From Bilabrum cf. latius (Eukaryota), in NCBI GenBank assembly GCA_965178125.1, contig OZ237759.1:868001-932000 (forward strand): a DNA stretch of 64,000 nt, in the 5' to 3' direction. A program made the translations under genes and the position numbers. The stretch's first letter is position 1. Each line of letters starts with the position of its first letter. The notes beneath the pieces are model-generated. The model saw only the letters and a list, made by a program, of their open reading frames with translations. It was not told the origin of the DNA and did not search any database. This document shows, in pieces, positions 681 to 64,000 of this stretch.

Positions 681-3600
681 ATGCTCGTGAGAAGACACTT
701 TTCGATCGATCATGCAGCACCACCTTGTCTTGCAGCAACAGTAAATTAGCGAAGGGCGCAGTAGGACCGAGTTCGACTTGCACAGGCAGGACCGCCAACA
801 GGACGTGGACACGGGCAAGCTGTCGTGTTTGCAAATGCTATTCACGGCCTGGACCGAGGCGACGCACCGGGGCCACACCATGGGGGGATTATTGAAGCAT
901 TTGGACAGGCATCGAAGGTTCCTACAACAACGGCGAATGACAAGACGCGGGTACGGATGCTTGCCAGTGGGATTCAATGGTGGCTTGTTGCCGTTGGGGC
1001 TATCGTCACTGTTGCGGTGCTCGCCGGCGTTTTGGGATGGTACTTTTCGAAGGATGATCCAAATGATTCAATCAATAGCATCATAGGCGCACGCCAGCAG
1101 CCAGTGACGCTAGAGGGGAGTATTGTCGCGGCGGGACTGGCCTCTCGCCAGCAAGACATTTCCGCGAATAGCGATCTTGCTCTGGATGCGTGCAGTGGTA
1201 TGGAGGAGGGGCTCGTTGTACCTGCCGGGTCATGCAGTATCCTTCTGATTGAAAAGATAGCCAGTCGCGATGAAGGCTCTGCATCCACCCGCAGGCGGGC
1301 CTTGCAGGTTGGTGAGGCTCAGACCAACGGCAGCCGCCATCGATTCACCTTCTAGTTGCGACTGCTGCCGCTGCACAGACCCGAGCTGGACGATGTTGAG
1401 CTTCATGCACTGCTGTGGGAGGCCTTATAGCGGGCAGTTGTATCCGGAGAGCTACTGGAAACGTTTCGCACCGCGGGCTCCGGCTCCCTCCAGGCACTCG
1501 AGGGCATCGCGGCACCGGCGCTACTCCTCGCAGTGCGGCAGCCATCGCCGACACCGGGTGCTGCAACCGGTTCCTCATCGCCAACAGCGTCATAGGGGGT
1601 ATCACCAGCGGTAACGCCCTCCAACACGCCTGTTGCAACGTTTGTAGCGGCATCGCAGTCGCCGGAGACATCCGTGCAGCCTCCAGAGCCGACCGCAGTG
1701 CCCCTCCCATCGGGGGATACCCAGCCCATACAAGTGACGCAGCCGCAAGTGCAGCTGGCCCTGAGCACAGAAGATAGCATCACTAGGCTGATTCGCACAT
1801 CATCCGGCCGCACCCCGCGGCCCGCTGGAGTCGCAGTCCCTGTGCCGTGCGGTAGGTCATACGACGGCCACGACTGGGAGTCGCAGCACCCGTGTCTGGT
1901 GCGCTTCAACTGCACCGGGGCCGGTAATGACCGCCTGTGTGGCGCTGAGCTTCCCATGATGGCAAACTACTCCTATTGGCTCGAGACGAGCGAGCTGGGG
2001 CGCACGCCGTCGCATGCTGCGCAAGCGTCTCGGTTTCTCATGCACGGCGCCTTCGGTCCGACCTAGGCAGGCATCGATCGATTCCCGGCCTCTGGTGCCA
2101 ACTTTGCCGACGATGCACGCGCTTGGATGCAGCACCAGCTGCAAGTGCCGTACACCCTGCATCGAGCCCACTACCGGCGGCTTGCGAATCCGCGATCGCC
2201 GGGCAATACCGTCGCTGGCCGGCCTAGGGAGGCATGCGAGTCTGGGTCACGCTGGATGGGCTTTGCTGTGACGCAGTTCGATCAGGGGGCGACATTTGAG
2301 TTCGTGAATGATACGCTCATAGTCAACGGTTACCCGCGCACCTACGTGGAGGGTGCGCAGATGCCCCCGGAGGCAGGGGACGGGCCTTGGCGAGTGTGCT
2401 ACGTGCAGGAGAGGGTAGGGGGGTACATTCAATACGCAACCATGACGTCCCCGTGCCAGTTTGCTGGCACCAATCCGCCCATGATATTCCAGGAAGGCAG
2501 CGAGCCCGTAGAGTACATGTCTACGACAGAGCTAGGCGTCACGGTGGTGCCCGTGGCACGGCCTGCCAGTGACGTTTTTGTGCTGGAGAGCCCCCCTTCC
2601 TCTTGTCGGGCTCGCCGAGCGGGGCCGGTGTTCATGCGAGCTGCGGTGGAACCAGCAGGACCTGGTGCGCCACTCGTGTGGCTTCAGCTGCAACGGCGCC
2701 TGCGGATCGTGGACAATACGCCTGAGAATCCAGCCAACCACCGAGCCGTGGACGGCCTTGCGTGTCCGACGGCACCCAAGACCCCACTCAATGCACACCT
2801 TTGCGTGATCGCTCCCGGCTGTGGCAAGCCGACCATTGAGCCCGAGAATGCCTTGCTTACGTTGAATGCGAGTGTTATTCGCAGCTTGTACGAAGAATCT
2901 GGGATTTACGTCTACTACGTCACAGGACTCAAGATGGATTCCACGGTAGCGCCGTGCGGTGGGACATCGGGGCAAGTGAAATCTCGGTGGTATCGAGTGC
3001 AGCCAAGCGCCTGCAGTAATGCAGCAGCTCCTGGTAGTGCATCTTTGGATAATAGCACGCATGCGCTTCTGTCCAATGCGATCATGGCAGCGGATGACGG
3101 CGCAGACGTGATCGATGTATCGGTCGAGGTGGGAGGAGACAGTGCATGCACGCGAGCAGCCAAGGGTGTCCGCATCAACGTCCAGAGCGGGTCAGGCAGC
3201 AGTGCTGCCACAATGTGCTGGCAGCACGTGCACCAAGACGAGCGATCGGTACTGGACTTCACCTACTGGACAAGGTCACACCCAGGCAATCAGAACGCAC
3301 GCAACCAGGCTCGCCGGAACCCAATTACCGCAGTGGCAGAGCGTGGCGAGGTCAGGATATAGTTTCCTTCCTACCACGCAGCCAGCTAGTGGGAGGAGCG
3401 GAGGGCTCACCACCCCGTCATTGGGCGCTTGAATGGCCCCCTCCGTATCGCTGACCTTCCACCTGACCTGCGCACCCCTTAGCTGCTGCGCCGCGTGGGG
3501 GTCACGCAATCGTCCTCGGCGGATGCCCTGGATGACACTGTGGAGGTGTGCGGGTCGTACGGTGAGGTTGGCAATGACCCGTAGGCAGGTGACAAGTACA

Positions 3601-6600
3601 CGATGGCCCTCGATGGCAACGTAGATGTGGTATACTATGACTTAGACTAGTACGCGGAGGGCATCAAGGGGCAGAACACCAAGAGCAACGTTTGGGTAAA
3701 CGCCGTGCTCGATGCGCCCGACCAGCTTAGGCAGCGAGTGGCTTGGGCGCTGGAGCAACTGCTGGTGGTCAATGAAGGAGGCGCTAATCGTGAGCTTGAC
3801 ACAGAGGTGTTCGCCGCCTACCACGACATAATGGTCAGGCACTCGCTTGGCAGCTTCCGGGAGTTGCTGCGCGAGGTGGCACTCTCGCCCATCATGGGCA
3901 CGATGCTCACGTATCAAGGAAGTAACTCGCTGTACGTCACCCAGGAGCTGTTGCAGTAGCCGCCTGCCTTCCCCGATGAGAACTTTGCTCGCGAGATCCT
4001 GTAGCTCTTCACGATCGGGCTGTGGGAGTTGAATGCGGACGGCACGCGGAAGGTCGATGCTAGTGGTGGTTTCATTCCGACGTACTCGAATGCCGACATC
4101 TTGGAATACTCGAGGCTGTGGACTGGGCTTGGATACCAGCCGGTGGAGATCGAGCGCGCTAACATTGAGACTGTCGCGGCAAAGTTCACTCCAACTGGCG
4201 TAGACCCCATGCGTATCTTCTTCCCACAGTCGCGCGACTCTTTCCCGAAGCTAGGCCTTCGTGGAAGATTCATCGGAGATCATTACCCAGCTTGCTGGGA
4301 CCTTCCAAATCAGCATTTCCTGCGGCCTGGAGCTCGATACCACTACCTCGGCAACAGTCCGGTGCCGCGCCTCCAGACAGACCCCGAGGAGATCGCCATC
4401 GATGGCACCAAGCGAATGGTGCTGGATGCTGAGGACTCGGAGCTTTATGCGCTCCTCTGTGGCGAGCGCGGCCTCAACACAACCTGCTCCGGTACGTTGC
4501 GTTCGCTGGTGGTATTAAATCGCTCGATTTCCTGCCACGGCGCCGAGTGCTTGGCTGATACCTTGCGGGTAGTGTAGATTAGCCGGGGCCCGGGTCGCAA
4601 GCCAGTGTACTTTGAATACGAACGGCCGCCTTGCGTGGAGTTTGCCTTTGTCGAGAATGGTCACGGACGCCCGACTTCATGGTACACGATCCAAGCAATG
4701 TGCGTCGACCAACGCGCGGAGGCCGCAGCTGGGGCGTGCTGCCCCCTTGACGGCAGTAACCCAGCGGGCCGAGTTGCGTGCGGCCTGTACCAGGGCGAGC
4801 GAATACGATACGCAACAGCAGAAGCCCGCTGCAACGCAGCCGGCCAGACGCTGTGCCAGACATAGTACCCTGCCACTGAGTGCGGCAACTGGGGTGACCG
4901 CAGGCAGTGGGGCACATCAAGGTGCACCACACGTGTGCGTGTATTCCCTGATGGTCGAGTACAAGCCCTTCATGAAATGACAGGCCACTTCTAGGGGTCG
5001 CGCGAGGCTCGTGTAAGTGACGTGAGGGACAACTACAAGTTTCGCGTTGGTTGGAGTAATGGGTTCCCGCGTAATTCCGCGGATCCGCTTGCGAATGGAA
5101 GGTGTGTCCCTGCATCCGGTGGGACTGTATCATGCGAGGTCGACGTTGTAGCGGAAGTCGCCTTCGATTATGTGCCGGAAAACTACACCGTTATAGCTGA
5201 GGCACTTCATGTAGGTGCAAACGATCCATTGACCACAGGCGATGCAGCGGAGTATTCGCTGTGCACGACACCCGCGTGCTCACTGCTGGGCTAGAATCAC
5301 GGCGTGGAGGTCTTCCTTCGTCGAGACAGCAACGGCACACTCGATTCTACTACAATCTTCCGCGCAACCGTTGGTGGTCGACCACGCTTCTTGGCAAATG
5401 TTCACCACCAGGTGCGTGTCTCTGATAGATACAGCTTCCGTAACCCGCCAGTGATGATGACTGTGTGGGAGGACGCTGCACGCAATGCCTATCAGGAGAC
5501 TGATGCGGCGATCGACCACTACCTTTAGCACGAAAATGTCCCTCCGTTCCTGGCAACTTTCCTGATCAAGCGACTCACCGTTTCGAATCCATCGCCGCGG
5601 TACGTGTAGGTAGTCGCGGATGCCTTCCGGTCGGGACTGTACCAGGGGGTCGGCACCGGAGAGTTCGGTGACCTGGCTGCGACTGCAGCTGCTGTCCTGT
5701 TGGATCGAGAGGCGCTGTCGCCTACTCTTGAGGCAGATCCATCCCACGGCAAGTTGCGAGAACCGCTGCTAAAGGTAATGCACCTGTTCCGTGCGCTGGG
5801 GCTCCAGGCTGCTGACGGCCATGTTATAGAACTCTTCGAGATGGAGCGCAGGCTGGGCCAGCTGCCCTTTAAGTCACCATCAGTGTTTAATTTCTACCAG
5901 GATGACTTCCAACCACCAGGTGCACTTGTAGATGCGCAGCTTACAGCGCCAGAGGCGTAGATCCTCAATACACCAACGATAATGGGCTGGCTCAACGGCG
6001 TTCTGAGTCTGCTCGAATTCGGCCTGACAAGCTGTGAGGGGGGCTTCGGGTCTCGAACGTGGGCTCAGGTGGGTACTGGCGTCTAGTGCGACCACATTGG
6101 CGAGGGATTGGTGCAGCCAGACCCTTACTGGGCGGCTAACCTGACATGGATGCCAGGGAGCGCTGCTCCGTCGGATGTAGCTGAGGAACTCGACCTTCTT
6201 CTGACAGGTGGCCGCATGAGCCCATGGACGAAGAGCGTCATTGCATCGGCTATCCGGTCAGTCCGGGATACTCCTGGTAGCAGCACGTTAGATGAGCGTA
6301 CCGCTGCGGTTCATCTTGCAACATCGGCTCCAGAGTTTCACACCTTAGGTGTTGGCCATACCCCAACTCAAAGTAAGGTGTCGCCTACGGAGTCCCCTGA
6401 TGGTGCTGATGCACCCACGACCGCCTCGGTGGGTGGCACAGAGGCAGACGGATACCACCTAGTCGTGTTTCTTAACTTTAATGGTGGATGTGACTCGTAC
6501 AACATGCTCGTGCCACTGAGTGGCTGTCAGAACGACATGGACCTGTACGCCCACTACCAGCAGGTTCGCGGAGATGTCGCCCTTCCCACCAGTTAGTTGC

Positions 6601-7742
6601 TCGAAGTTGATGTGCCAACGGGCTCACAGCCTTGCGACCGGTTCGGAATCCACCACCGACTCCCGATTCTACAGCAACTGTACGACGATGGTGATGCAGT
6701 ATTCATCGCGAACATAGGGCCGCTCGTGGAGCCTGTGACGCGGGATGAGGTGGAGAGAGGCACGGCCCCTGTTCCGGATGGCTTGTTTGCTCACAATCTG
6801 CAGACCAAGGTGACCTAGAGCGTGTACGCTCAGGACCCCTCGAATGTTGGCGTGCTTGGCAGAATTCGGGACGCATTGTATCGACAGGGGCAGGCGGCAA
6901 CCGCGTACTCGATCAATGGCAACAGCATTGCCGTGCAGGGCGAGCCTGGACAAGGTCCATCCCCGGATATAGTGGATTCACTGGCCGGGGTGGTCCCATT
7001 CGATGCCAGAGGAAGGGTAGCAACTCTGTCAGGAGCACTTGAGTCCCTGGTGCGAAACGGGTCACGGTCTTTCATGGCTGACTCGTGGTCGAGGCAGCTC
7101 GCGTCGGCACTTGAGAGGTCGAGGATGCTGGCCGCCTCTGTAGAGCGGAACGGCACTCTATAGCAGCCCTTTGCCGCGGCTGTACCCGCGCCCAATACAG
7201 CTCCGAGTCAGATCGCCTTGCAGCTTGAGCAAGCGGCGCGGCTAGTTTCTGCTCGCAAGGCGCTGGGGTCTACTCGCGACATGGTATTTGTAGAATTAGG
7301 CGGCTTTGATAGCCACAGCGATCTTTTCCAGACGCACGACGGGCTATTCCAGCAGATCAACGAGGCCCTTGATAGTTTCATACAGGAAATGAGGCTGCAA
7401 GGTGTGTGGGAGAATGTGACGATCGTGCAGACAAGTGAGTTCGGGCGCACGCTCACCAGCAACGGTGCTGGCACGGATCATGGGTGGGCGGGAAACACCT
7501 TTGTGGTAGGCGGCTCGGTGCGTGGGGGTCGTGTGCACGGCCAGTACCCAACTGACTTGTCGGAGGATGGGTCGCTTAACCTGGGACGAGGCAGACTCAT
7601 CCCAACGACCGGGTGGGAAGCTGTGTGGAATGCAGTAGCCCAGCGCTTCGGTGTGGACAAGAACCAAATGTCGGCAGTTCTACCCAACCTGAGTAGGTTC
7701 CCTGCAGGGTCTCTTCTAGAGCCTGAGGACCTGTTTGTGTGA
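681..7742 (+). CDS. DUF1800-DUF1501 fusion protein (~2350 aa) with an N-terminal TM segment, intronless
   Basis: Thirteen listed ORF pieces share one frame and are separated only by TAG (~24 in total; no TAA or TGA until 7740). DUF1800 motifs: DQLRQRVAWAL, PDENFAREIL[TAG]LFTIGL, VSNPSPRYV, GKLREPLL, SPSVFNFY, APEA[TAG]I. DUF1501 motifs: NGGCDSYNMLVP, LGGFDSHS, SEFGRTLTSNGAGTDHGW, GRLIPTT. The start ATG (681) is the first in frame after TGA 675 and is uncertain. Confidence 0.88.
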
Positions 7743-24128: not shown

Positions 24129-26011
24129 ATGGCAAGTGCAACCGGAGAGCAAAAGATCGGCACCGTTGATGCCCCACTGCGTAAAGACACCATAACTGAT
24201 GATGGCGGCGTTGTCAAGCTCGTGCTGCAAGAAGGAGAGGGAGAACAGCCCCAGACTGGATATTCTATCAAGAGTGAGGAGGCTAATGCAGCATGCCCGG
24301 TAGTCTCTCGTGCCAGTGTGGTTTGATTTAGTGTGTACATGCATGTGTCAACCTTTCGGGTAGATCCCAGCCCGGGCGATGCTGTAGTGTTGGCTATTTT
24401 AGCAAGGTGCTCGCCGCTCGAGCCACGTGGCTGGCAGTCCTACCCGTCCCCATACACCCTTTGTGCGCAGTGCACTATCGCGGCACCTTGAAGTCGAATG
24501 GCAAGGAGTTTGACTCATCGTACAAGCGCGGCAAGCCGTTCGCTTTCAAACTCGGCCAAGGCCAGGTCATCAAGGCGTGGGACAAGGCGGTCGCCACCAT
24601 GCGGGTAGGAGAGAAGGCAGTCATCCAGGCCAGATCGGACTACGCGTATGGTAGCTCTGGCATGGGAGACATCCCACCGGACTCGGACCTGAACTTTGAG
24701 GTGGAGTTTGTGGGGGCCGAGGAGGCCAAGAAGCAGCTGTGGGAGATGACCGCCAGCGAGAAGATCGAGGAGGCCAGCAAGGCCAAGACCGCGGGGGATG
24801 GTGCCTTCAGGGAGGGCAAGGGCGACTTGGCCCTGGATAAGTGGTAGGAGGCCATCCGCATGCTGGAGGACGTCAGCAACCCGGACCTGCCCTCCTCCGA
24901 CGGGGCCGACGAGAGGCCGGGGGTGGATGCGGCCTGCGCGCGGTGCTACAGCAACTGCGCCGTGGTCTGTATGCGCGCCTCTCGCTGGAAGGAGGCAGTG
25001 GAGCACGCCGAGAAGGCCATCGCAAGGCACTCAGAGACTGCAGGGGTCAAGGCGCGCTTCCGTGCCGCGCAGGCGTGCCGTCACCTAGGCCAGCTGGACC
25101 GGGCCAAGGAGCACCTCACCGAGGCCCTGGCCATGTCTCCTGGGAATGAATCGATCCTAAAGGAGCAGGCTGAGCTGAAGAAGGCCTCCACTGCCGTAAA
25201 GGCCAAGAAGAAGAAGGCATACGGGGGCATCTTCTCAGTCAAAGGAAGAGAGAAGCTGAAGAAGGCAGGCGGGGCCCTGTACGCCGACCTCATCCCGGTG
25301 ACCGAGCACGACGACTGCCCGCGGGTGTTTTTCGATGTCAGCATCGGGAGCAAGCGAAGGGAGCGCATCGAGATCGCCCTCTTCACGGACACGACCCCCA
25401 AAACAGCAGAGAACTTCAGGGCCCTGTGCACTGGCGAGAAGGGCACCGGTGCTTCGGGCAAGCCCTTGCACTTCAAGGGCAGCAAGTTCCACCGCATCAT
25501 CGATAACTTCATGGCGCAGGGTGGGGACTTCACCAGCGGAGACGGGCGCGGGGGGGAGTCCATTTACGGGTCGCGGTTCGAAGACGAGAATTTCCGGTGC
25601 CTGCACGACCGGCCCTGCCTGCTCTCCATGGCCAACGCGGGCAAGGATACGAACGGGTCGCAGTTCTTCCTGACCTTCGTGCCAACGCCCCACCTTGACG
25701 GCAAGCACGTGGTGTTCGGTGAGGTGGTCAAGGGCAAGAAGACTGTCTACGAACTGGAGCTGGTAGGCAGCGGGGGCGGCGAGCCCAAGACGGACGTGGT
25801 CATCGAGGACTGCGGCGTGGTCGATGAGTACAAGCCCCAGCCCGTGCCCAAGCAGGGCCAGGAGGGGTTTGAGTCGCCGGACGAGGCCAAGAAGCAAGCT
25901 GTGGAGAGCAAAGAGGAGCTCTTGGCCGCTGCGAGTGGGGGGAGTGGGGCGGGGGAGGGGGGGGGAGATGCCGTAGATCCCCTGGAATCCAACAAGGAGG
26001 AGGAAAGCTGA
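24129..26011 (+). CDS. Dual-family immunophilin FKBP-TPR-cyclophilin (FCBP), 2 exons (24129-24273, 24471-26011)
   Basis: [18 protein letters not shown]...HYRGTL...[25 protein letters not shown]...YAYG...LNFEVE. Three TPR-like helices. Cyclophilin: [63 protein letters not shown]...GCAG intron; one TAG at 24845. Confidence 0.92.
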
Positions 26012-54400: not shown

Positions 54401-55119
54401 ATGACGGCGATGCAGGCACGGCACGGAATGCAGTCCTCGCCATGGGCATCATTGGAGCAGGCACCAACAACAGCAGGCTGGCCGGCATGCTGCGGCAATT
54501 GTCTGTCTTCAACAAGCAAGATGGAGAGTCGCTTTTCATCGTCCGGCTGGCGCAGGGGCTGCTGGCCATGGGACAGGGCCTCGTCACCGTGAACCCATTC
54601 CACAGCGACGGCATGCTGCTCAAGACGCCGGCAGCTGGTGCGCTGCTAGCTGTGGCCCTTTGCGGGCTGGATCTGGACCGTACCGTGTTGGCGCAGCACC
54701 ACCTGCAGCTGTTCAACATTGTCCCGGCCATCTCTCCCAGGATGGTGGTGACCCTGGACGCCAGAGATGCCGACGAGATGGTGCGCGTGGATGTGCGTGT
54801 TGGTACTGCGGTGGAGACTGTGGGGCAGGCGGGCCGCCCCAAGACAATCACTGGGTTCCAGACCCACCAGACCCCAGTGCTCCTGGCTGCCAAGGACCGC
54901 GCCGAGATCGCCCCCACAGACCAGTGGGTGCCCCTCACCTCAACGCTGGAAGGTGTGGTGCTGCTGAGGCGGGTAGAGGACGCGTCCATGGATGACGCGG
55001 TGAGGGCAGCTGGCGTGGGTGAAGTGGATGAGGACCAGCGGAAGGCGGTGGAGAACAAGGGTAGCCCCAAGCCGAAGCGGAAGGCTAGTGTGGCTACTGG
55101 TACCGATCCGTACGACTGA
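51434..55119 (+). CDS. PSMD2: 26S proteasome regulatory subunit RPN1; exons 51434-51574, 51670-55119
   Basis: AEEDRLLKERLE, RSSTSSMTAVPKPLKYL, WGHEHTRALAGEI, HNAEAEAVDLLLE, DSARGNLAASYVSGFVN, PC repeats, DTLSKLSHD, AGTNNSRLAGMLRQL, VGQAGRPKTITGFQTHQTPVLL. Three TAGs. Confidence 0.95.
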
Positions 55120-55520
55120 GTCTATGTGATGACTTGCTGCTATGCCACATAGATCTAGCCCTACATCCAAATATTATTTTTTTTTATCGCGGGTATCGGT
55201 TGTTAATGGATCAATGCAGCGTTTCACGTGGAACTTACGTAGATGGAGAGAGGGTAGGCCGAGGCCGAAAAAGAATCCGGATCTACGAAGATCTTAAAGT
55301 TAAATAGCCTGAGGCCCGAGAACAGCCCGCGTTTTGCATGCCACTAGGTCCAGAATATCTGGTTAAGGTCATATGCATGGAGAGCTAAGAACAGCAGTAT
55401 GACAAAAGTACAAACATCCACATCAGGATTATGGGCGGCTGCTGCAGACTAAAATCCTTATGTCGACTTGGACAATCAGATTATATCGCATTTCAGATTT
55501 GAATCTCCATTCATGTCCCT

Positions 55521-55724
55521 ATCCATGGCCCTCTCGTCCGATCCACCAAACACCACACTGGCTGGCCCCATCCATAGCCTCTTCCACGTCCCAATCCATG
55601 GCCCTCTCGTCCGATCCACCAAACACCACACTGGCTGGCCCCATCCATAGCCTCTTCCACGTCCCCATCCATGCCCCTCTCGTCCGATCCACCAAACACC
55701 ACACTGGCTGGCCCCATCCATAGC
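55521..55724. repeat. Subtelomere-like tandem repeat, 73-bp unit, ~2.8 copies
   Basis: The unit ATCCATGGCCCTCTCGTCCGATCCACCAAACACCACACTGGCTGGCCCCATCCATAGC... starts at 55521, 55594 and 55667, then runs into the TTAGGG array. Confidence 0.92.
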
Positions 55725-55727
55725 TAC

Positions 55728-56270
55728 GGGTTAGGGTTAGGGTTAGGGTTAGGGTTAGGGTTAGGGTTAGGGTTAGGGTTAGGGTTAGGGTTAGGGTTAG
55801 GGTTAGGGTTAGGGTTAGGGTTAGGGTTAGGGTTAGGGTTAGGGTTAGGGTTAGGGTTAGGGTTAGGGTTAGGGTTAGGGTTAGGGTTAGGGTTAGGGTT
55901 AGGGTTAGGGTTAGGGTTAGGGTTAGGGTTAGGGTTAGGGTTAGGGTTAGGGTTAGGGTTAGGGTTAGGGTTAGGGTTAGGGTTAGGGTTAGGGTTAGGG
56001 TTAGGGTTAGGGTTAGGGTTAGGGTTAGGGTTAGGGTTAGGGTTAGGGTTAGGGTTAGGGTTAGGGTTAGGGTTAGGGTTAGGGTTAGGGTTAGGGTTAG
56101 GGTTAGGGTTAGGGTTAGGGTTAGGGTTAGGGTTAGGGTTAGGGTTAGGGTTAGGGTTAGGGTTAGGGTTAGGGTTAGGGTTAGGGTTAGGGTTAGGGTT
56201 AGGGTTAGGGTTAGGGTTAGGGTTAGGGTTAGGGTTAGGGTTAGGGTTAGGGTTAGGGTTAGGGTTAGGG
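55728..56270 (+). repeat. Telomeric repeat tract (TTAGGG)90, internal to the contig
   Basis: Uninterrupted TTAGGG from 55731 to 56270 (540 bp), G-rich strand on +. Confidence 0.98.
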
Positions 56271-56330
56271 TATCTAATATAAAGTCAGGGACAGGGTCGG
56301 GGAAAAAATATTTTCATCTTCAATATTTGT

Positions 56331-57561
56331 CGAAAAACGACGTGCTACGATCTCGGTAACTACAGGTGATATGAAGACCGTTCAAACTGCATCGGGACGG
56401 CCTGGGGGCACAACATGGGCCAAATGTTCCCCAGGTTCCGTTCTGGCCGCGCGGCGCCGATATGGGTGTATGAAGAATTTCACACCGAAAAACGACGTGC
56501 TACGATCTCGGCAACTACAGGTGATATGAAGACCGTTCAAACTGCATCGGGACGGCCTGGGGGCACAACATGGGCCAAATGTTCCCCAGGTTCCGTTCTG
56601 GCCGCGCGGCGCCGATATGGGTGTATGAAGAATTTCACACCGAAAAACGACGTGCTACGATCTCGGCAACTACAGGTGATATGAAGACCGTTCAAACTGC
56701 ATCGGGACGGCCTGGGGGCACAACATGGGCCAAATGTTCCCCAGGTTCCGTTCTGGCCGCGCGGCGCCGATATGGGTGTATGAAGAATTTCACACCGAAA
56801 AACGACGTGCTACGATCTCGGCAACTACAGGTGATATGAAGACCGTTCAAACTGCATCGGGACGGCCTGGGGGCACAACATGGGCCAAATGTTCCCCAGG
56901 TTCCGTTCTGGCCGCGCGGCGCCGATATGGGTGTATGAAGAATTTCACACCGAAAAACGACGTGCTACGATCTCGGCAACTACAGGTGATATGAAGACCG
57001 TTCAAACTGCATCGGGACGGCCTGGGGGCACAACATGGGCCAAATGTTCCCCAGGTTCCGTTCTGGCCGCGCGGCGCCGATATGGGTGTATGAAGAATTT
57101 CACACCGAAAAACGACGTGCTACGATCTCGGCAACTACAGGTGATATGAAGACCGTTCAAACTGCATCGGGACGGCCTGGGGGCACAACATGGGCCAAAT
57201 GTTCCCCAGGTTCCGTTCTGGCCGCGCGGCGCCGATATGGGTGTATGAAGAATTTCACACCGAAAAACGACGTGCTACGATCTCGGCAACTACAGGTGAT
57301 ATGAAGACCGTTCAAACTGCATCGGGACGGCCTGGGGGCACAACATGGGCCAAATGTTCCCCAGGTTCCGTTCTGGCCGCGCGGCGCCGATATGGGTGTA
57401 TGAAGAATTTCACACCGAAAAACGACGTGCTACGATCTCGGCAACTACAGGTGATATGAAGACCGTTCAAACTGCATCGGGACGGCCTGGGAGCACAACA
57501 TGGGCCAAATGTTCCCCAGGTTCCGTTCTGGCCGCGCGGCGCCGATATGGGTGTATGAAGA
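56331..57561. repeat. 155-bp tandem repeat, ~8 near-identical copies
   Basis: The unit CGAAAAACGACGTGCTACGATCTCGGCAACTACAGG...GTATGAAGAATTTCACAC recurs every 155 bp (56331, 56486, 56641...). I see only two single-base variants, in the first and last copies. Confidence 0.97.
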
Positions 57562-57813
57562 TTTGCATGTTTATTCAATATGCATGGTTTATCTGTCAAT
57601 TGTAGAATGGGTATGGTGTACATGACAGTTGTATTTGCTGTGTGGATTGCTTTGATCTAAGGTATTAACTGGTTGACACGTCAAGACTCAACAGAATGCC
57701 TCCCGGCTCCTAATGCTGCGTCCGAATGGGTCAATGGCAGACACTTTGGCAAACTCCTCTCACAAGCTGGCCCAGCTGCCACTGACCTCAATTGCCGTCC
57801 CCCTGCCTGCCTC

Positions 57814-59352
57814 TCACTCGTCACCGAAAGCTGCTAGGAGCGCTTCCACAGCGTCGACGTCTGCCGCATTGAGATCTCCTTTCGCCGTCTTCTCGAGGGC
57901 CGTCATCAGGTTTGCGAACATTTCCAACTCGCGGTCCCTCTCTTCAATTGTTGCCTCCACGTCCTCGCGCATGTCTTTGAGAGTCCGGCTGACGCCCATC
58001 GCGCTGTCATCGCAGGCAGCAAGGATGCGGTCCACCAGGTGCCGCTGCTAGTCGGTGAAGGCGGTGTCCTCCATTCCACTGTTGTTGTCAGAGTCGTCTT
58101 GCTGGTTCTGGCCGTCGTTTTCTTCTTCCTCAACCAGCTGCTCCTCATCCTCCTCGTCCTGCTGCTCAAACCCCATTGGAGCGTCGTCCTCGTCCTGCTC
58201 TCCAGCTGCGTCTGCGCGGTACCGACCACCGATGTCCTCTTCATCTTCGTCAGAGTCCTGACGAGGCAGTGATGCTGCTGCTCCACTCCTTGCGCCACTT
58301 GCTCCCCTTTTCTCCTGTTCAACGGCGCGGCGTGCTCCTCTGCCATTGCCTGGTTGGACGACTGCCGGTCGCTCGGGCTGCCTCTATGCCCGCGGCTCAG
58401 CCTCAGCCGCCTTCTTGCCCTTTGACTCTGCCGGTTGTGCACCCTTGCCCTTCGCCTTGCCCTTCGACTTGCCCTTCGACTTGCCCTTCGACTTGCCCGC
58501 GGCCTTGGTCCTGGCCTTTGCCTTGGCCTTTGCCTTGGCCTTTCTCTCGGCCTCCGCCTCTCGCTTGGCTCTGAGAAGATCGTTGTTCAGTCGCTCGGTC
58601 GATGAGTCGCTGGACTCTGAGCCGTCTGTATCCGGCTCACCCCGTGCTTTCCGGGCCGTGTAGGCCCTCTGGCCCTTCACATTGTTGTCGGGGTTGTCCT
58701 CGTCCTCATCGTCGTCGTCGTCCATGGCACTCCGTTTGCCCTTCCGAGCACGGGATGCCCCACTCGGCGAGGTAGCAGCGGCTCCCGAAGAGCCACCTTG
58801 ATCTCCTGCTGCAGCCCCGGCAGAGTCCTTGACTGCCATGTCGAACACCTCTATGAATACAGCCTCCATGCCTCCGCGTGCACGTACAGAGGCCGTCCCA
58901 GCTCCATTATCGCAGATGAACTTGAGCACGTTCTTGAAGCGCCTGCGCAAGCCGTCTAAGCCTGCCTTGAAGAATGGGTTTGTGGTGGTGGAGTAGCCAC
59001 ACTCGCGCAGAGCCGTGAGAAGCTGCTTCATCTTCCGAAAGCCTGGCCAGTCGGAGCTGCTGGCTGACGCGTCTGGGCACAGGCGGCTGTTCAGCGCTGT
59101 GAGCACGCCAAATGGCACCTCAAACTCATCCAGCGCCAGCATGGCATCCACGCAGGCCCTGATGCCCTCCCTCTTGGTCCCTTCGTAGTGCTCCGAAGAT
59201 CCGCAGAGCAGCCCGCAATCCTGGTGGAGGCCCACGAGGGAGATAAGCAGGATCTGCTTGGCCGCGGAAGTGTCGACGCCTGAAGCCAGGGAGGCCACGA
59301 CAGGGCGAGATGCCTTGGTGTGCTTGGCGCTGTAGCTCTTTGCGGCGGCCAT
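57814..59352 (-). CDS. Orphan protein (~512 aa) with basic KAK/KSKG repeats, acidic tracts and a C-terminal coiled coil
   Basis: ATG 59352 (MAAAKSYSAK) joins ORF 57814..58035 through two TAGs (58384, 58048); TGA at 57814. Confidence 0.7.
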
Positions 59353-59590
59353 AGTACTCTGCGGTGCCAGGGGAACACGGGTGAGGTCACGAACAGGTGC
59401 TTGGATGCGACAGGGAACACGGGCACGAGACCCAGGGTTACTCCTGGACAAGCTCGAGGGCAAAAAAAAAAAAAAAGGCACCCACATAACCCCGCGCACT
59501 CGGTCTCAGACCTGGGACCCATGATGTTGGGTCGATCCCCCAGTCGTGGGGGGAACGGACCCCAGCCCAGAAAAAAAATTAAAAAAAGAT

Positions 59591-59670
59591 CGCCCCAACG
59601 GGAATCGAACCTCGGGGGTAGGCCGGGGTGCGATTACCAACCGTACGCAATACCACTACACCACCACAGC
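59591..59670 (-). ncRNA. Degenerate tRNA-like Pol III unit (A box + B box + oligo-T terminator)
   Basis: Minus strand GCTGTGG-TGGTGTAGTGG(A box)...GGTTCGATTCC(B box)-CGTTGGGGCG followed by T7 (59581-59587). Acceptor and anticodon stems do not pair properly. Confidence 0.5.
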
Positions 59671-60244
59671 AACCCACGCGAAACCGAAAAAAAATTACAG
59701 ATTCGCATCAAAAGTGCACGCAACTTGCACTTGTCACGCCGAAACCTACCCGTTCACCCAACGAGCAGCGCGAAATCAGAAACACTCATATTGCGCTCCT
59801 TGTATTCAATTGCAGAGGCGCATACTTGGCATATAGCTACTATAGCATATTGTGCATACAACCCTAAAGCAAACGTGAGTCAAATCGATGGGGTATGCGT
59901 GGGGATTGCCTTGCGCAATGCGCTTGCTGCAACGTGGTTCAGACGTTTGCCTCAATTGCGCGACGGCAAGCACTCGTTGGAACTAATCTCGCGCATATTA
60001 TCAAATAATATAACATACTGCAAACAATTGCGCGGCGATATATAGGCTGCGCGCCCAATGCTCACTTTGCTTGCGGTAGGTGTGCTGCGACAACATTTGT
60101 GGTGGCCCGGATCAGGTTGCGGAACCTGATGCGCGGCACCGCCGTGACGAGTGCGCCACCAGGGAACAACGCATCGTACCATCATACTAATCACATCCCA
60201 AGTATATTATATATCCTTGTGGCATCTCTGTCCGCAGTCTGGTC

Positions 60245-63200
60245 ATGGCGCAGTCCACGTACGACGCCACCAAGCATGTGAAGGCTCTCGATTACCTCCG
60301 GGCCTTCCTGGACCGCCGCGCGAAGGGCTACGCCCAGAACCCGCATCGCGTGCGCATCGGAGTCCCAGGGCCACTTCAACCAGGAGGTGCCGCCCTGCCT
60401 GGCCCGCCGGCCGGCGAGGCGCAGGCCCAGATCCCGGCCCAGGTGGGGCCAGCGCCAGGCGGTCATGCCGCCGGGGGGGGCGATGCGGCAGGCCTGCCGG
60501 CCCCCGTCCCAGCCATCGGCGAGCATGCTCCGGAGCCCCAGCACCAGCAGCAAGAGGGCGCCCAACAACCACCACCGGGTGCAGCTCTTGCTGCTGGCCA
60601 GCAGGCGATGCCCGCCGCCCCGCCCCAGCACCCCGCTGGTCCGGGTGCCAACCTGCCGGTCCCAGGAGGCCTGCAGCCCGAGCCGCCAGCTGGCGATGCC
60701 GACGCCTTCCTCCCGATCCCGGAGCCCCAGCAGGAGCCTGCAGGTGGGCCAGCCGGCGTCGGTCCGGCCCCTCCAGCAGCCGAGCAGCAGCCAGCTGCCC
60801 AGGCTGCCCAGCACCAACTCGTCCCTGGGCCCGTGCCTCTCGCCGAGGTGCCCGTCCTGGCCGGGGTCGGCGCAGGGGAGGACGCGATGGAGGACGACGA
60901 GCCCCCAGAAGCGGTCCAGGCCATCTTCCTCGGGCGCCAAGCCGCCCACGCGGCCACCCAGGCAGCTCGGCAGGCCATGGTCTGGGATGCTCAGGGCCAG
61001 CAACCGCTCTTCGGGGCAGAGGGAGGAGCGCCCGAGCTGCCCATCCCCGGAGTCGTGTTCGCTGCCGGTGCAGAGGCAGCCGGCGCCCAAGGCGGTGGCG
61101 CAGGCCCAGACGCCGGAGGGGAGGTCGGTGCGCCACCCGTGCAGGCGTGGAACCTGGTCGTCGGCGACCCTGGGGGAGCGCATGGAGAGGAGGCCCTGGC
61201 CGTCAACCTCCCGCCCGAGTACCGGTTCGGCATGCACGAGGCGACAGACGACCTCGCGCAGCACCCCATGCTGGCCTACCACATATGGGAGGTGGACGAC
61301 GAGGCGGTGCAGGCCCTGCAGGGCCTGCTGACCTGCGTTGGCAGGCAGGAGCTGCCTCCCGAGGTGTGGAGGGCGCTCGCACCTCCAGTGATGGAGACGG
61401 TGACCATGCAAGGCATGCGGCGCTGGTGGGCGTACCAGAGGCGCGCCGTTGTCGTCGTGGACAGCCTCCTGCATGCCGAGACTGATGCTGCCGGCGTGGA
61501 GCAGCGCGCGCAGAGGCGCGGCCGCTTTCTCGTGCAGCTCGTTGGCTGGACTGACATCACCAAGATGCTGGAGAGCGAAGACCTGAACGAGGAAGGGGCT
61601 GCCTTCATTCGGAGCAAGCTGGCTTCGGTGGCGGTCAGCTTCTGGCCGTCTCCGATGCTGGCGGAGCCCGGGCTGCACAGCCACAAGCTCTCTCCGCTCC
61701 GCACGGAGTGGGATCACTACATCGAGTACAACCGCGTGGACGAGACGGTCTTTGACGCGGTCGGGCTCTCCGAGCAGCCTCCAGCGTTCATGTACGAGGA
61801 CGAGGACGAGGACGAGATGGAGGAGGGGCCGGCGGCGCAGCCGGCTGGGGCGGAGGAGCATGCAGAGGGCGACGAAGATGCCGGGTATGAGGCTGGGGAA
61901 GGCGAGTGGGGTAGGGAAGGCCAGTGGGACTCGGACGGAGACCAAGGTGGCGACGAGGAAGCGGATGGTGGAGATCCTGCCGCGGAGGCTTTCGGAGCTG
62001 CGGATGCCGAGCTGGAAGGCGAGCCTGAAGAGGAGCAGGAGGCCGCCCCGGATGTGCTGCGGAACCCACCAGACGGCATGGCGGCCCCCGTGGCGGTCCG
62101 CTCTGAGCTCTCCGATGTCGACGCCATGGAGGTGGTCGGGATCCTATCCGGCGCCGGAGCCTCCCAGGAGGTGCAGACCAGCCCGTTCATGCTGGCGCTT
62201 GGGGGGCCGGTGTCACGGCTCCTGCTGGACGAGCCGCTGGACCAAGCCTACGGCCTCATCGACGTGCTGATTGGAGCCGACTCGGCGACGCAGGATGGGG
62301 TCCTCTGCGGGCGCAGGGGTCTGCAGAGGGACGGGGGGCAGATCAGGGTGCAGTCGGCCACGCAGCAGCACCAGCGCACCGAGGTGGACACGAGCGGCTC
62401 ATCCAGGCCCCGGCTCGGCTACAGCATCGTCTTCAACCGGCACATCCCCACGTAGGAGCGGGACAATCCCGGCACGCCGAGGAGTCACGGCGCGTACTAC
62501 TCACCCCGCATCGACGTCGCGTACCTTGGACCGATGGGGATCCAGAACATGGGCGTGGATTCGGAGCCGCTGCGGCTGCACCGCATCCATCACGCTCTCC
62601 CTGCACCAGCAGGGGACCACGTGACCGTCCAATCCCTGACATCGGACGTTCGAAGTGCAGCTCGTCGCTTCCACCAGAGCAGCGAGGAGGTTGGGGTGCT
62701 AGAGGAAGCTGAAGCGATCCTGGAGGGAAGCACCGGCACAGTGCGAGGCAATGCCAGGGCCGTGAAATCCGCACGTGCCACGCTCCGCAAGTACCTCACG
62801 ATGATGCCCAAACAGCGCGGGGTCGGATCTGGCGACGTCTCGGTCTCTGTCCTCCTGGCGGGGGCGGCTGAGGTGCGAGTCGTGCTACCGGAGGGCGGTG
62901 TGGCTCGGGTGTTTGGCGTTGCTCACGCAGGGTCTGAGGAAGAGCAGGCCTCCTTGCGCACACTCGCGAGGCGCTGGAACATCCGGCGACTGGAGGGAAT
63001 GCGCCTCGTTGGAACGCCGTTCGACCAGGCCGTGCAGTCGCTCCTGATTGGCATCGCAGGTGCCATCAACTACGTGAGAGAGAAGGAGGGGTACCGCGGG
63101 CCCGAGTTCATGGTGCAGTCGACCCCGAGGACTGCCACGACGGCGCAGGGACTCTCCGCATCGTACGCGATTGTAGCAACCGACTCGCCCGTCGGTGTCT

Positions 63201-64000
63201 CTCGCGGAAGCACCCACACCGAGACTTTGAGTCCTGGAGACCGTCACATGGGCGTGCGTGGGACTGCTGAGCCTGATGGCGGGCATCGCATCAGGCCCGG
63301 GTACTTCCTGTGCGAAGTGCTCCGGGTTCTGAGCGAGGACGCGGCCCTGCATCCCACCCAGGTCAGCCATCTGCCCCACAGGCTGAGATATCCTGACGGA
63401 CTGAAGATCCAAGGGGTCCTGGCGTGCTCGATCTACCGAATCCTGGTCGTCGGGGGCCAGAACCAGGCGGCGGTTGCTGTGATGCGATCCCTGATGCTGC
63501 GACAGGCTCCGGCCGCTGGTGAGCCTGAGGAGGACCCTCCGGACCACGGCGGGCACCCTGTAGTGTTCGTCGACCCTCTTGCCGCCGGGAGGGACGCCAT
63601 CCGCATGGCGACGGAGCTCGGGCAACATCGACCAGAGATCCAGTGCCAGGACCCCGTGTTGCTCTCCATGGACCTGGGCTTCATGGCAGGTGGCGGCGAC
63701 ATGCACGCTGCGTTTCCGAGCGTGCTGGGCCTGCGTCATGCCATGGCACTTGCGGGTGATGCCGTGGCCGACATCTCCTCCGTACCGGGCTTCGGACAGG
63801 TGGGGAGCTAGTTCGTCTTCCCAATGCAAGTGGATGAAGAGAACGTGAACTGCCTGCTCATGAGCCCATCTCTGGGCAGTGTGCAGTTCAGGGCTCGTGC
63901 CAGAGGCGATACGCAAGCTGCCATGACTAAGCATGACTTTCAGCACGTGGCTGAGCTGGTATCGCAGGCCACCCGCGAGCGGGACGACGAGTTTGTTCGT
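60245..64000 (+). CDS. Large orphan protein (>1250 aa, runs off the window): Pro/Gln/Ala-rich N-terminus, acidic linker, globular-looking C-terminal part
   Basis: ORFs 60245..62455 and 62534..63811 share one frame, joined by TAG 62453. The frame continues through TAG 63809 to the window end with no TAA or TGA. Confidence 0.75.

Follow-up and report, generated by a model that had tools for sequence, protein, structure and literature searches.

Yeast Y′ elements are multi-kilobase repeated blocks at chromosome ends, with a large open reading frame (ORF), no transposition enzymes and short internal telomere tracts, and they are thought to spread by recombination or break-induced replication. Human subtelomeric duplicons are repeated, transcribed blocks bounded by internal (TTAGGG)n islands, and they stem from exchanges between chromosome ends. 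Here we describe a telomere junction in Bilabrum cf. latius that lies within a window of 64,000 nucleotides (NCBI GenBank assembly GCA_965178125.1, contig OZ237759.1, positions 868,001 to 932,000 of the forward strand); the window is this whole stretch, and all coordinates below refer to it. A perfect telomere tract separates the left 55.7 kb, which carries ordinary eukaryotic genes, from a 7.7-kb block that runs to the right edge and contains a satellite array and two divergent genes, ORF1 and ORF2. At a probability of roughly 0.45, we read this block as repeated, host-adapted telomere-associated DNA analogous to Y′, in which the satellite array and a divergent, lineage-specific gene pair would have been placed beyond the tract by recombination between telomere repeats. 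In the 7.7 kb visible, the block encodes none of the machinery needed to transpose or to build virions.

Telomeres also harbor viruses and retroelements. In integrated human herpesvirus 6 (HHV-6) and Marek's disease virus, the host subtelomere is followed by a TTAGGG tract and then by the insert, which has imperfect telomere-like repeats at its edge. The Athena/Terminon and TRAS/SART retroelements lie distal to telomere repeats and are interspersed with them, and Athena/Terminon can be tens of kilobases long. For the stramenopile Aurantiochytrium limacinum, the sections of a genome report drawn on here describe terminal telomeres of ~500 bp and a 269-kb mirusvirus-like element between two sets of subtelomeric elements, endogenized by sub-telomeric recombination (10.1101/2023.06.15.545109). 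The same sections list 128 ORFans among the 177 genes of an episomal mirusvirus-like element of Aurantiochytrium, and place the G+C content of the integrated A. limacinum copy 3.4 points off that of its chromosome (10.1101/2023.06.15.545109). Mirusviruses are intron-rich and have GT-AG spliceosomal introns, according to the cited part of a further report (PMC12768974).

The Bilabrum locus resembles the Y′ region of Saccharomyces cerevisiae in that an internal telomere tract in terminal orientation lies directly proximal to a repeated block, which has a large ORF and no transposition enzymes in view. Unlike Y′, which encodes the helicase Y′-Help1, the block has no helicase domain or motif in ORF2; its tract is a perfect 544 bp, whereas internal Y′ tracts are short, and the likeness is one of analogy only, with no sequence relationship. 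Because it encodes no helicase, the block does not belong to the Y′ family. As in human duplicons, repeated host DNA lies distal to an internal telomere tract, but the human islands are short and degenerate, whereas the tract here is perfect and of terminal length. The order of elements in HHV-6 and Marek's disease virus integrations recurs here together with the imperfect repeats at the edge; those vertebrate herpesviruses have recognizable genes, in contrast to the block. A position distal to telomere repeats is shared with Athena/Terminon and TRAS/SART, from which the visible 7.7 kb differ in having no reverse transcriptase (RT), no hammerhead and divergent genes. LE-Chr15 (AurliV-2) of A. 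limacinum, as far as the cited sections describe it, shares with this locus a stramenopile host (a probable one here) and orphan-rich DNA at a chromosome end with end elements internal. It differs in carrying a major capsid protein, terminase, portal protein, PolB and further hallmark genes, none of which was seen in the 7.7 kb here, and in a G+C content slightly below that of its chromosome, whereas the block equals its host.

Telomere junction and the genes beyond it

The right part of the window is laid out as follows.

55515-55724, no strand: 73-bp subtelomeric repeat, 2.9 copies (Tandem Repeats Finder, TRF; 97% matches)
55728-56271, + strand: perfect (TTAGGG)n tract, 90.7 units (TRF; period 6, 100% matches)
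56272-56330, no strand: junction stretch of 59 bp (read from sequence)
56331-57561, no strand: 155-bp tandem array, 7.9 copies (TRF; 99% matches)
57814-59352, - strand: ORF1, 512 aa (ATG at 59352, TGA stop)
~59588-59680, - strand: tRNA-derived-looking stretch, not a tRNA gene (A/B-box-like words, then a T-run)
59875-60237, + strand: 363-nt GT..AG intron in the ORF2 5′ leader (joint of 59874 to 60238 in one contig of run X6)
60245 to beyond 64000, + strand: ORF2, >1252 aa, open at the window end

The left part has a gene-dense end: RPN1 stops at 55119, ~600 bp ahead of the telomere tract, and the 73-bp repeat alone lies between them, with its third copy broken off exactly at the start of TTAGGG. 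The tract measures 544 bp. Its G-rich strand runs 5′ to 3′ toward the right, so that it is oriented as the terminus of the left, housekeeping part, and nowhere else in the 64-kb window do two or more TTAGGG/CCCTAA units follow one another. On the block side, three degenerate G-rich hexamers (TCAGGG, ACAGGG and TCGGGG, 56296-56313) are oriented like the tract, as would be expected if the block natively starts with old telomere-like repeats. At the joint itself, TTAGGG is followed directly by TATCTAATA; an A-run is absent from the joint, and the sequence read at the junction has no poly(A) or target-site pattern and no run of N. The G+C content is unchanged across the tract. Searches for terminal inverted and long direct repeats in 55100-64000, and for paralogues of the block in the left part of the window, returned low-complexity matches only.

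The 155-bp array is homogeneous, with six of its full 300-nt registers 100% identical and one 99%. It matched no RNA family (Rfam), and a 36-nt word of its unit had no exact copy in IMG/VR or in the prokaryote genome collection.

ORF1 and ORF2 are divergent and separated by an 890-bp intergenic stretch. Each contains two in-frame TAGs (58048-58050 and 58384-58386 in ORF1; 62453-62455 and 63809-63811 in ORF2). ORF1 consists of an N-terminal part, a basic KGKS/KAKA repeat, an acidic tract and a C-terminal part; this basic/acidic, coiled-coil make-up may be that of a chromatin- or nucleic-acid-binding protein. In an AlphaFold2 single-sequence model of ORF1, the N-terminal part is helical and the C-terminus forms a long helix; the model, with a predicted local distance difference test (pLDDT) value of 52.2, was too poor for fold comparison. 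ORF2 has a P/A/Q-rich N-terminus and acidic linkers, and the model of a part of it (pLDDT 35.9) was likewise too poor to compare. Its leader intron ends 7 nt ahead of the start codon.

Neither gene was assigned to a known family. Pfam returned 0 families at E ≤ 0.01 for ORF1 and ORF2 and nothing meaningful at E ≤ 10. Two Pfam matches within the looser limit, FATC (E 0.13) and EBNA2_Core (E 4.1), were treated as noise. In the 7.7 kb and a 191-aa continuation of ORF2, there was no signal of RT, integrase, polymerase, capsid, terminase or helicase. Rfam found no hammerhead or other RNA family in 55100-64000, and no RT of Penelope-like elements was found in the same interval. Walker A, DEAD/DExH, YxDD, CxxC and HExxH motifs were absent from ORF2 and from its continuation (public fragment P0004).

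Database searches gave no close relative of ORF1 or ORF2 in IMG/VR (pieces of both searched) or the JGI metagenomes, and none in the prokaryote genome collection with public fragment P0001 as the query. Word-based searches of 5.8 billion proteins, which reach near-length proteins only and in which low-complexity words may have crowded the candidates, found no relative of ORF1 or of ORF2 residues 320-1251. Against PDB sequences, ORF1 had a single chance-level match (E 0.98) and ORF2 had 0 matches, and none of ten table-11 ORFs from the right part was present in the protein collection on exact look-up. A language-model search (ESM Atlas) with ORF1 residues 1-215 pointed to viral hypothetical proteins with flap endonuclease (FEN)/5′-3′ exonuclease-type domains; the score of 0.86 and the recognition value of 1852 (mark 2300) lie below every threshold, and HMMER shows nothing.

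For ORF2 residues 321-1251, HMMER against 1.84 billion representative proteins yielded four matches, all of them 99-100% identical fragments of ORF2 itself and all on a single public contig of 12,766 bp. This contig also has stop-type codons at both TAG positions, and the frame goes on behind each. Fragment P0004 of the contig extends ORF2 by at least 191 aa past the window end. The public copy (P0003) has a frameshift near residue 369 (~window 61350) and restarts ~35 codons later; this copy is either a pseudogene of the family or was misassembled at this point. Antisense open frames also lie over ORF2 (60191-61861, - strand, 556 aa; 62501-63934, - strand, 477 aa). As genes, they were rejected as a by-product of high G+C content, and in codon usage they are further from the host (r 0.52 and 0.65).

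The stretch at 59588-59680 contains one B-box-like word, GGTTCGATTCC, and 14 of 100 shuffles also yield one. It has an extended T-arm hairpin and T/A runs on its flanks. ARAGORN predicted 0 tRNAs in the window; in 55100-64000, Rfam gave no tRNA with E ≤ 1, and no family reached its gathering score anywhere in the window. The minimum free energy fold was no better than that of shuffles (z +1.43). The stretch could be a remnant resembling a short interspersed nuclear element, or an RNA polymerase III-type element.

A sequence-only reading of this DNA had described, beyond the telomere, a shift from housekeeping genes to a 155-bp array, two divergent and intronless orphan ORFs (512 aa and >1250 aa) with two TAGs each, and a tRNA-like unit, with no hallmark gene recognizable. 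The array, both ORFs and their TAGs were recovered, and the lack of a recognizable hallmark agrees with the Pfam result. The shift in gene content was also confirmed: 2/2 large ORFs beyond the tract are orphans, versus 1/15 without a Pfam match on the left. Absence of introns holds for the coding parts but not for the 5′ leader of ORF2, where the X6 contig carries the 363-nt GT..AG joint. None of the three tests above identifies the tRNA-like unit as a tRNA.

Copies of the block and its likeness to the host

Public contigs were mapped onto 57562-64000 (6.4 kb), an interval beyond both the telomere tract and the array; runs with a small share (X9-X11) were left out of the mapping. Runs from four studies, one of which may be the window's own source, match parts of the stretch with an identity of ≥99%; none of them is listed as RNA. 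In run X3, the 6.4 kb drew 578 contig pieces, of which 138 were ≥99% identical, 152 were 95-99%, 169 were 90-95% and 119 were below 90%. ORF2 copies in X3 are near-identical, with 1-3 differences per contig. Summed depth over ORF1 was ~5,600-6,700 in four of the five bins of 57777-58851 and ~3,400 in the fifth, several-fold above the 820-1,000 over the 3′ part of ORF2 (62937-64000), although contig depth does not equal copy number.

Run X5, from a second strain or species, has a 3916-nt contig over 60578-64000 with 22 differences, and diverged copies are present in X3, X5, X6 and X8. Because contig identities are graded from ≥99% to below 90%, the block, and above all ORF1, is judged from these contigs to be a family of diverged copies. 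Runs X6 and X8 do not cover the intergenic interval 59497-59711, which X3 and X5 do; this hints at RNA, but that X6 and X8 are RNA runs is a guess only, and it was not counted as evidence.

The two genes differ in how their copies vary. Among the best 40 of 267 differences against public runs, 16 of the 19 ORF1 variants change an amino acid and three are synonymous; therefore, ORF1 copies appear to diverge freely at the protein level. Within the same 40, ORF1 variants lie mostly in the acidic, low-complexity C-terminal half (57814-58400), with many N/D, K/E and S/G swaps, and this half may be in relaxed or diversifying evolution. For ORF2, seven of nine variants (again among the best 40 of 267) are synonymous third-position changes, which supports a real reading frame under purifying selection.

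In composition, the block is indistinguishable from the host in G+C content, tetranucleotides and codon usage. The correlation of relative synonymous codon usage (RSCU) with pooled host genes was 0.85 for ORF1 and 0.89 for ORF2, within the 0.49-0.93 of host genes. G+C by codon position is host-like in both ORFs, with 0.77/0.50/0.77 at positions 1, 2 and 3 of ORF2. Tetranucleotide frequencies of 57562-64000 correlated with the left part at 0.930, and 16 host segments span 0.878-0.965. No virus-type departure from host composition was found, although such a departure is not strictly required of viral integrants.

TAG is a sense codon in host genes (1.8-13.8 TAGs per 1000 codons in 15 ORFs, window 1-55119), and the stop codon is TGA in 15/15 host ORFs examined, with TAA neither inside nor at the end of any. 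The sense TAGs of both block ORFs, the TGA stop of ORF1, the RSCU values and the tetranucleotide correlation bear out the earlier view that the DNA beyond the telomere is host-adapted and not contamination. The sequence-only reading of a mobile element or virus would have been given up for single-copy cellular genes with orthologues in relatives; the copies found are diverged, and distant relatives yielded no orthologue.

Readings of the junction

Placement by recombination would start with a chromosome end that invades telomere-like repeats proximal to a similar block on another end. Break-induced replication would then copy the block, giving a core chromosome, an internal telomere tract and a repeated block in that order. 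The block would accordingly be expected at several chromosome ends, with a terminal telomere further to its right, and recombination would be the mechanism that placed it. If the junction is real, the locus records a recent chromosome-end exchange in a poorly known protist, with a full-length telomere buried under a repeated block. It would then give access to the ways in which chromosome ends are rebuilt, and new gene families dispersed, in organisms other than yeast and mammals, the genes of the block being expressed, fast-evolving and lineage-specific in this description.

Several points weigh against placement by recombination. At 544 bp the tract has full length, with 100% matches, and this is more in keeping with a very recent event or an assembly join. 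The window ends inside ORF2, and no terminal telomere is in view. Unlike Y′, the block encodes no helicase (0 Pfam families; no Walker A or DEAD/DExH motif in ORF2), and contig depth, as said, is not a count of copies. A virus would also explain the change in gene content from 1/15 to 2/2 orphans, and host-like composition, introns and orphan genes would be compatible with a nuclear large DNA virus too.

It is somewhat unlikely, though less so than the accounts that follow, that the junction is an assembly join, in which the true left chromosome end was attached, via telomere-repeat overlap or a chimeric read, to repeated host DNA from elsewhere. The perfect 544-bp tract is of terminal length, as in A. 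limacinum (~500 bp), and the left side resembles a finished end, with the 73-bp repeat cut by the tract and RPN1 ~600 bp before it. The block is repeated, assemblers err at repeats, and the hexamers at 56296-56313 could be a short native internal tract that gave the overlap. However, an end-to-end misjoin predicts TTAGGG followed by CCCTAA, and a single orientation is present. There is no run of N, hence the junction is not a scaffolding gap, and a repeat-mediated join still requires real reads with TTAGGG repeats followed by the block. Were the junction such a join, the record would need correction and the "element" would become ordinary repeated DNA.

We regard as improbable a second alternative, that the block forms the proximal end of something larger, either an endogenous large DNA virus (mirusvirus-like or of another kind) or a giant element attached to the telomere, whose hallmark genes would lie beyond 64000. 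The gene content changes sharply at the tract and both genes are orphans, ORF2 matching its own fragments only among 1.84 billion proteins. A stramenopile precedent exists in the mirusvirus-like element of A. limacinum, which came in via sub-telomeric recombination, and the leader intron is compatible with mirusviruses, which have GT-AG spliceosomal introns. The sub-threshold language-model lead from ORF1 residues 1-215 to viral FEN-type proteins points weakly the same way; against it, the score lies below all thresholds and HMMER is blank. No hallmark was found in the 7.7 kb plus 191 aa and no close relative in IMG/VR, and G+C content, tetranucleotides and codon usage are the same as in the host. 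The many diverged ORF1 copies fit a host family better than a single integrant, and both the homogeneous 1.2-kb satellite and the long proteins of low complexity are features typical of the left-hand host genes.

The sequence-only reading had favored a telomere-inserted mobile element or endogenous virus, possibly of an undescribed class. With no hallmark, no IMG/VR relative and host composition, neither a virus nor an autonomous mobile element nor a new class of either finds support. It would be surprising if the block were a virus-like element in the host's TAG-sense code, with spliceosomal introns, that entered by telomere recombination. It would then be the first case of a virus-like element shown to have adopted the stop-codon reassignment of its eukaryotic host, and the telomere-integrating herpesviruses would gain a counterpart among protists. 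It is the reading that would matter most, and there is no positive evidence for it so far.

Very unlikely, and the least likely of all, is an autonomous telomere-targeting element (TRAS/SART-like, Penelope-like Athena/Terminon or another transposon with its enzyme outside the window): the block does sit next to telomere repeats on their distal side, is repeated, with ORF2 copies that are nearly identical, and includes a tRNA-derived-looking stretch. However, domains and motifs of RT, endonuclease and transposase were not found in it, nor were hammerheads and other RNA families; the junction shows neither poly(A) nor a target-site pattern, 55100-64000 has no terminal inverted or long direct repeats beyond low complexity, and the genes of the block are divergent with a common intergenic region, one of them keeping an intron. 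Retrotransposed copies have lost their introns and have their genes in one direction. The marks of TRAS/SART, namely RT with endonuclease, poly(A) at the junction and one gene direction, were not found in the block.

Host genes and their genetic code

The left 55.7 kb contains ordinary eukaryotic genes, among them kinesin-2, RPN1, SF3b2, an FKBP-TPR-cyclophilin fusion and choline kinase (Pfam), and all but one of the 15 large ORFs there have a Pfam match. The nearest named relatives of RPN1 are stramenopiles, namely Cafeteria roenbergensis (45% identity over 94%), Hondaea fermentalgiana, oomycetes and Mucochytrium. Since its closest named RPN1 relatives are stramenopiles, the host is probably a stramenopile as well.

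At the five TAG positions alignable to solved orthologues, the human proteins (KIF3B for the kinesin) have Q, Q, E, D and F, and the paralogue KIF3C has E at both kinesin TAG positions. TAG in the host may thus encode Gln, or else Glu. The earlier assignment of TAG to Gln stands as far as TAG is read as a sense codon; Gln specifically does not follow from these aligned residues. In the portion of the literature covered by our search, there was no report of nuclear TAG reassignment in a stramenopile, and none of the nuclear TAG-only cases named in the cited part of a 2024 survey (PMC11687900) is a stramenopile.

Two further ORFs of the left part are listed here.

681-7742, + strand: 2353-aa ORF with 24 TAGs; Pfam domains in the middle and C-terminal parts
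24293-26011, + strand: FKBP, TPR and cyclophilin domains in a single ORF

In the 2353-aa ORF, bacterial-type DUF1800 and DUF1501 domains are fused, with a long N-terminal region ahead of them. A second TAG-rich host example is a 1779-aa ORF with 12 TAGs. The initial ~60 residues of the FKBP-TPR-cyclophilin ORF have a non-coding appearance, and because of this, an upstream intron is likely. Similarly, the RPN1 ORF begins at a position that matches residue 89 of the human protein.

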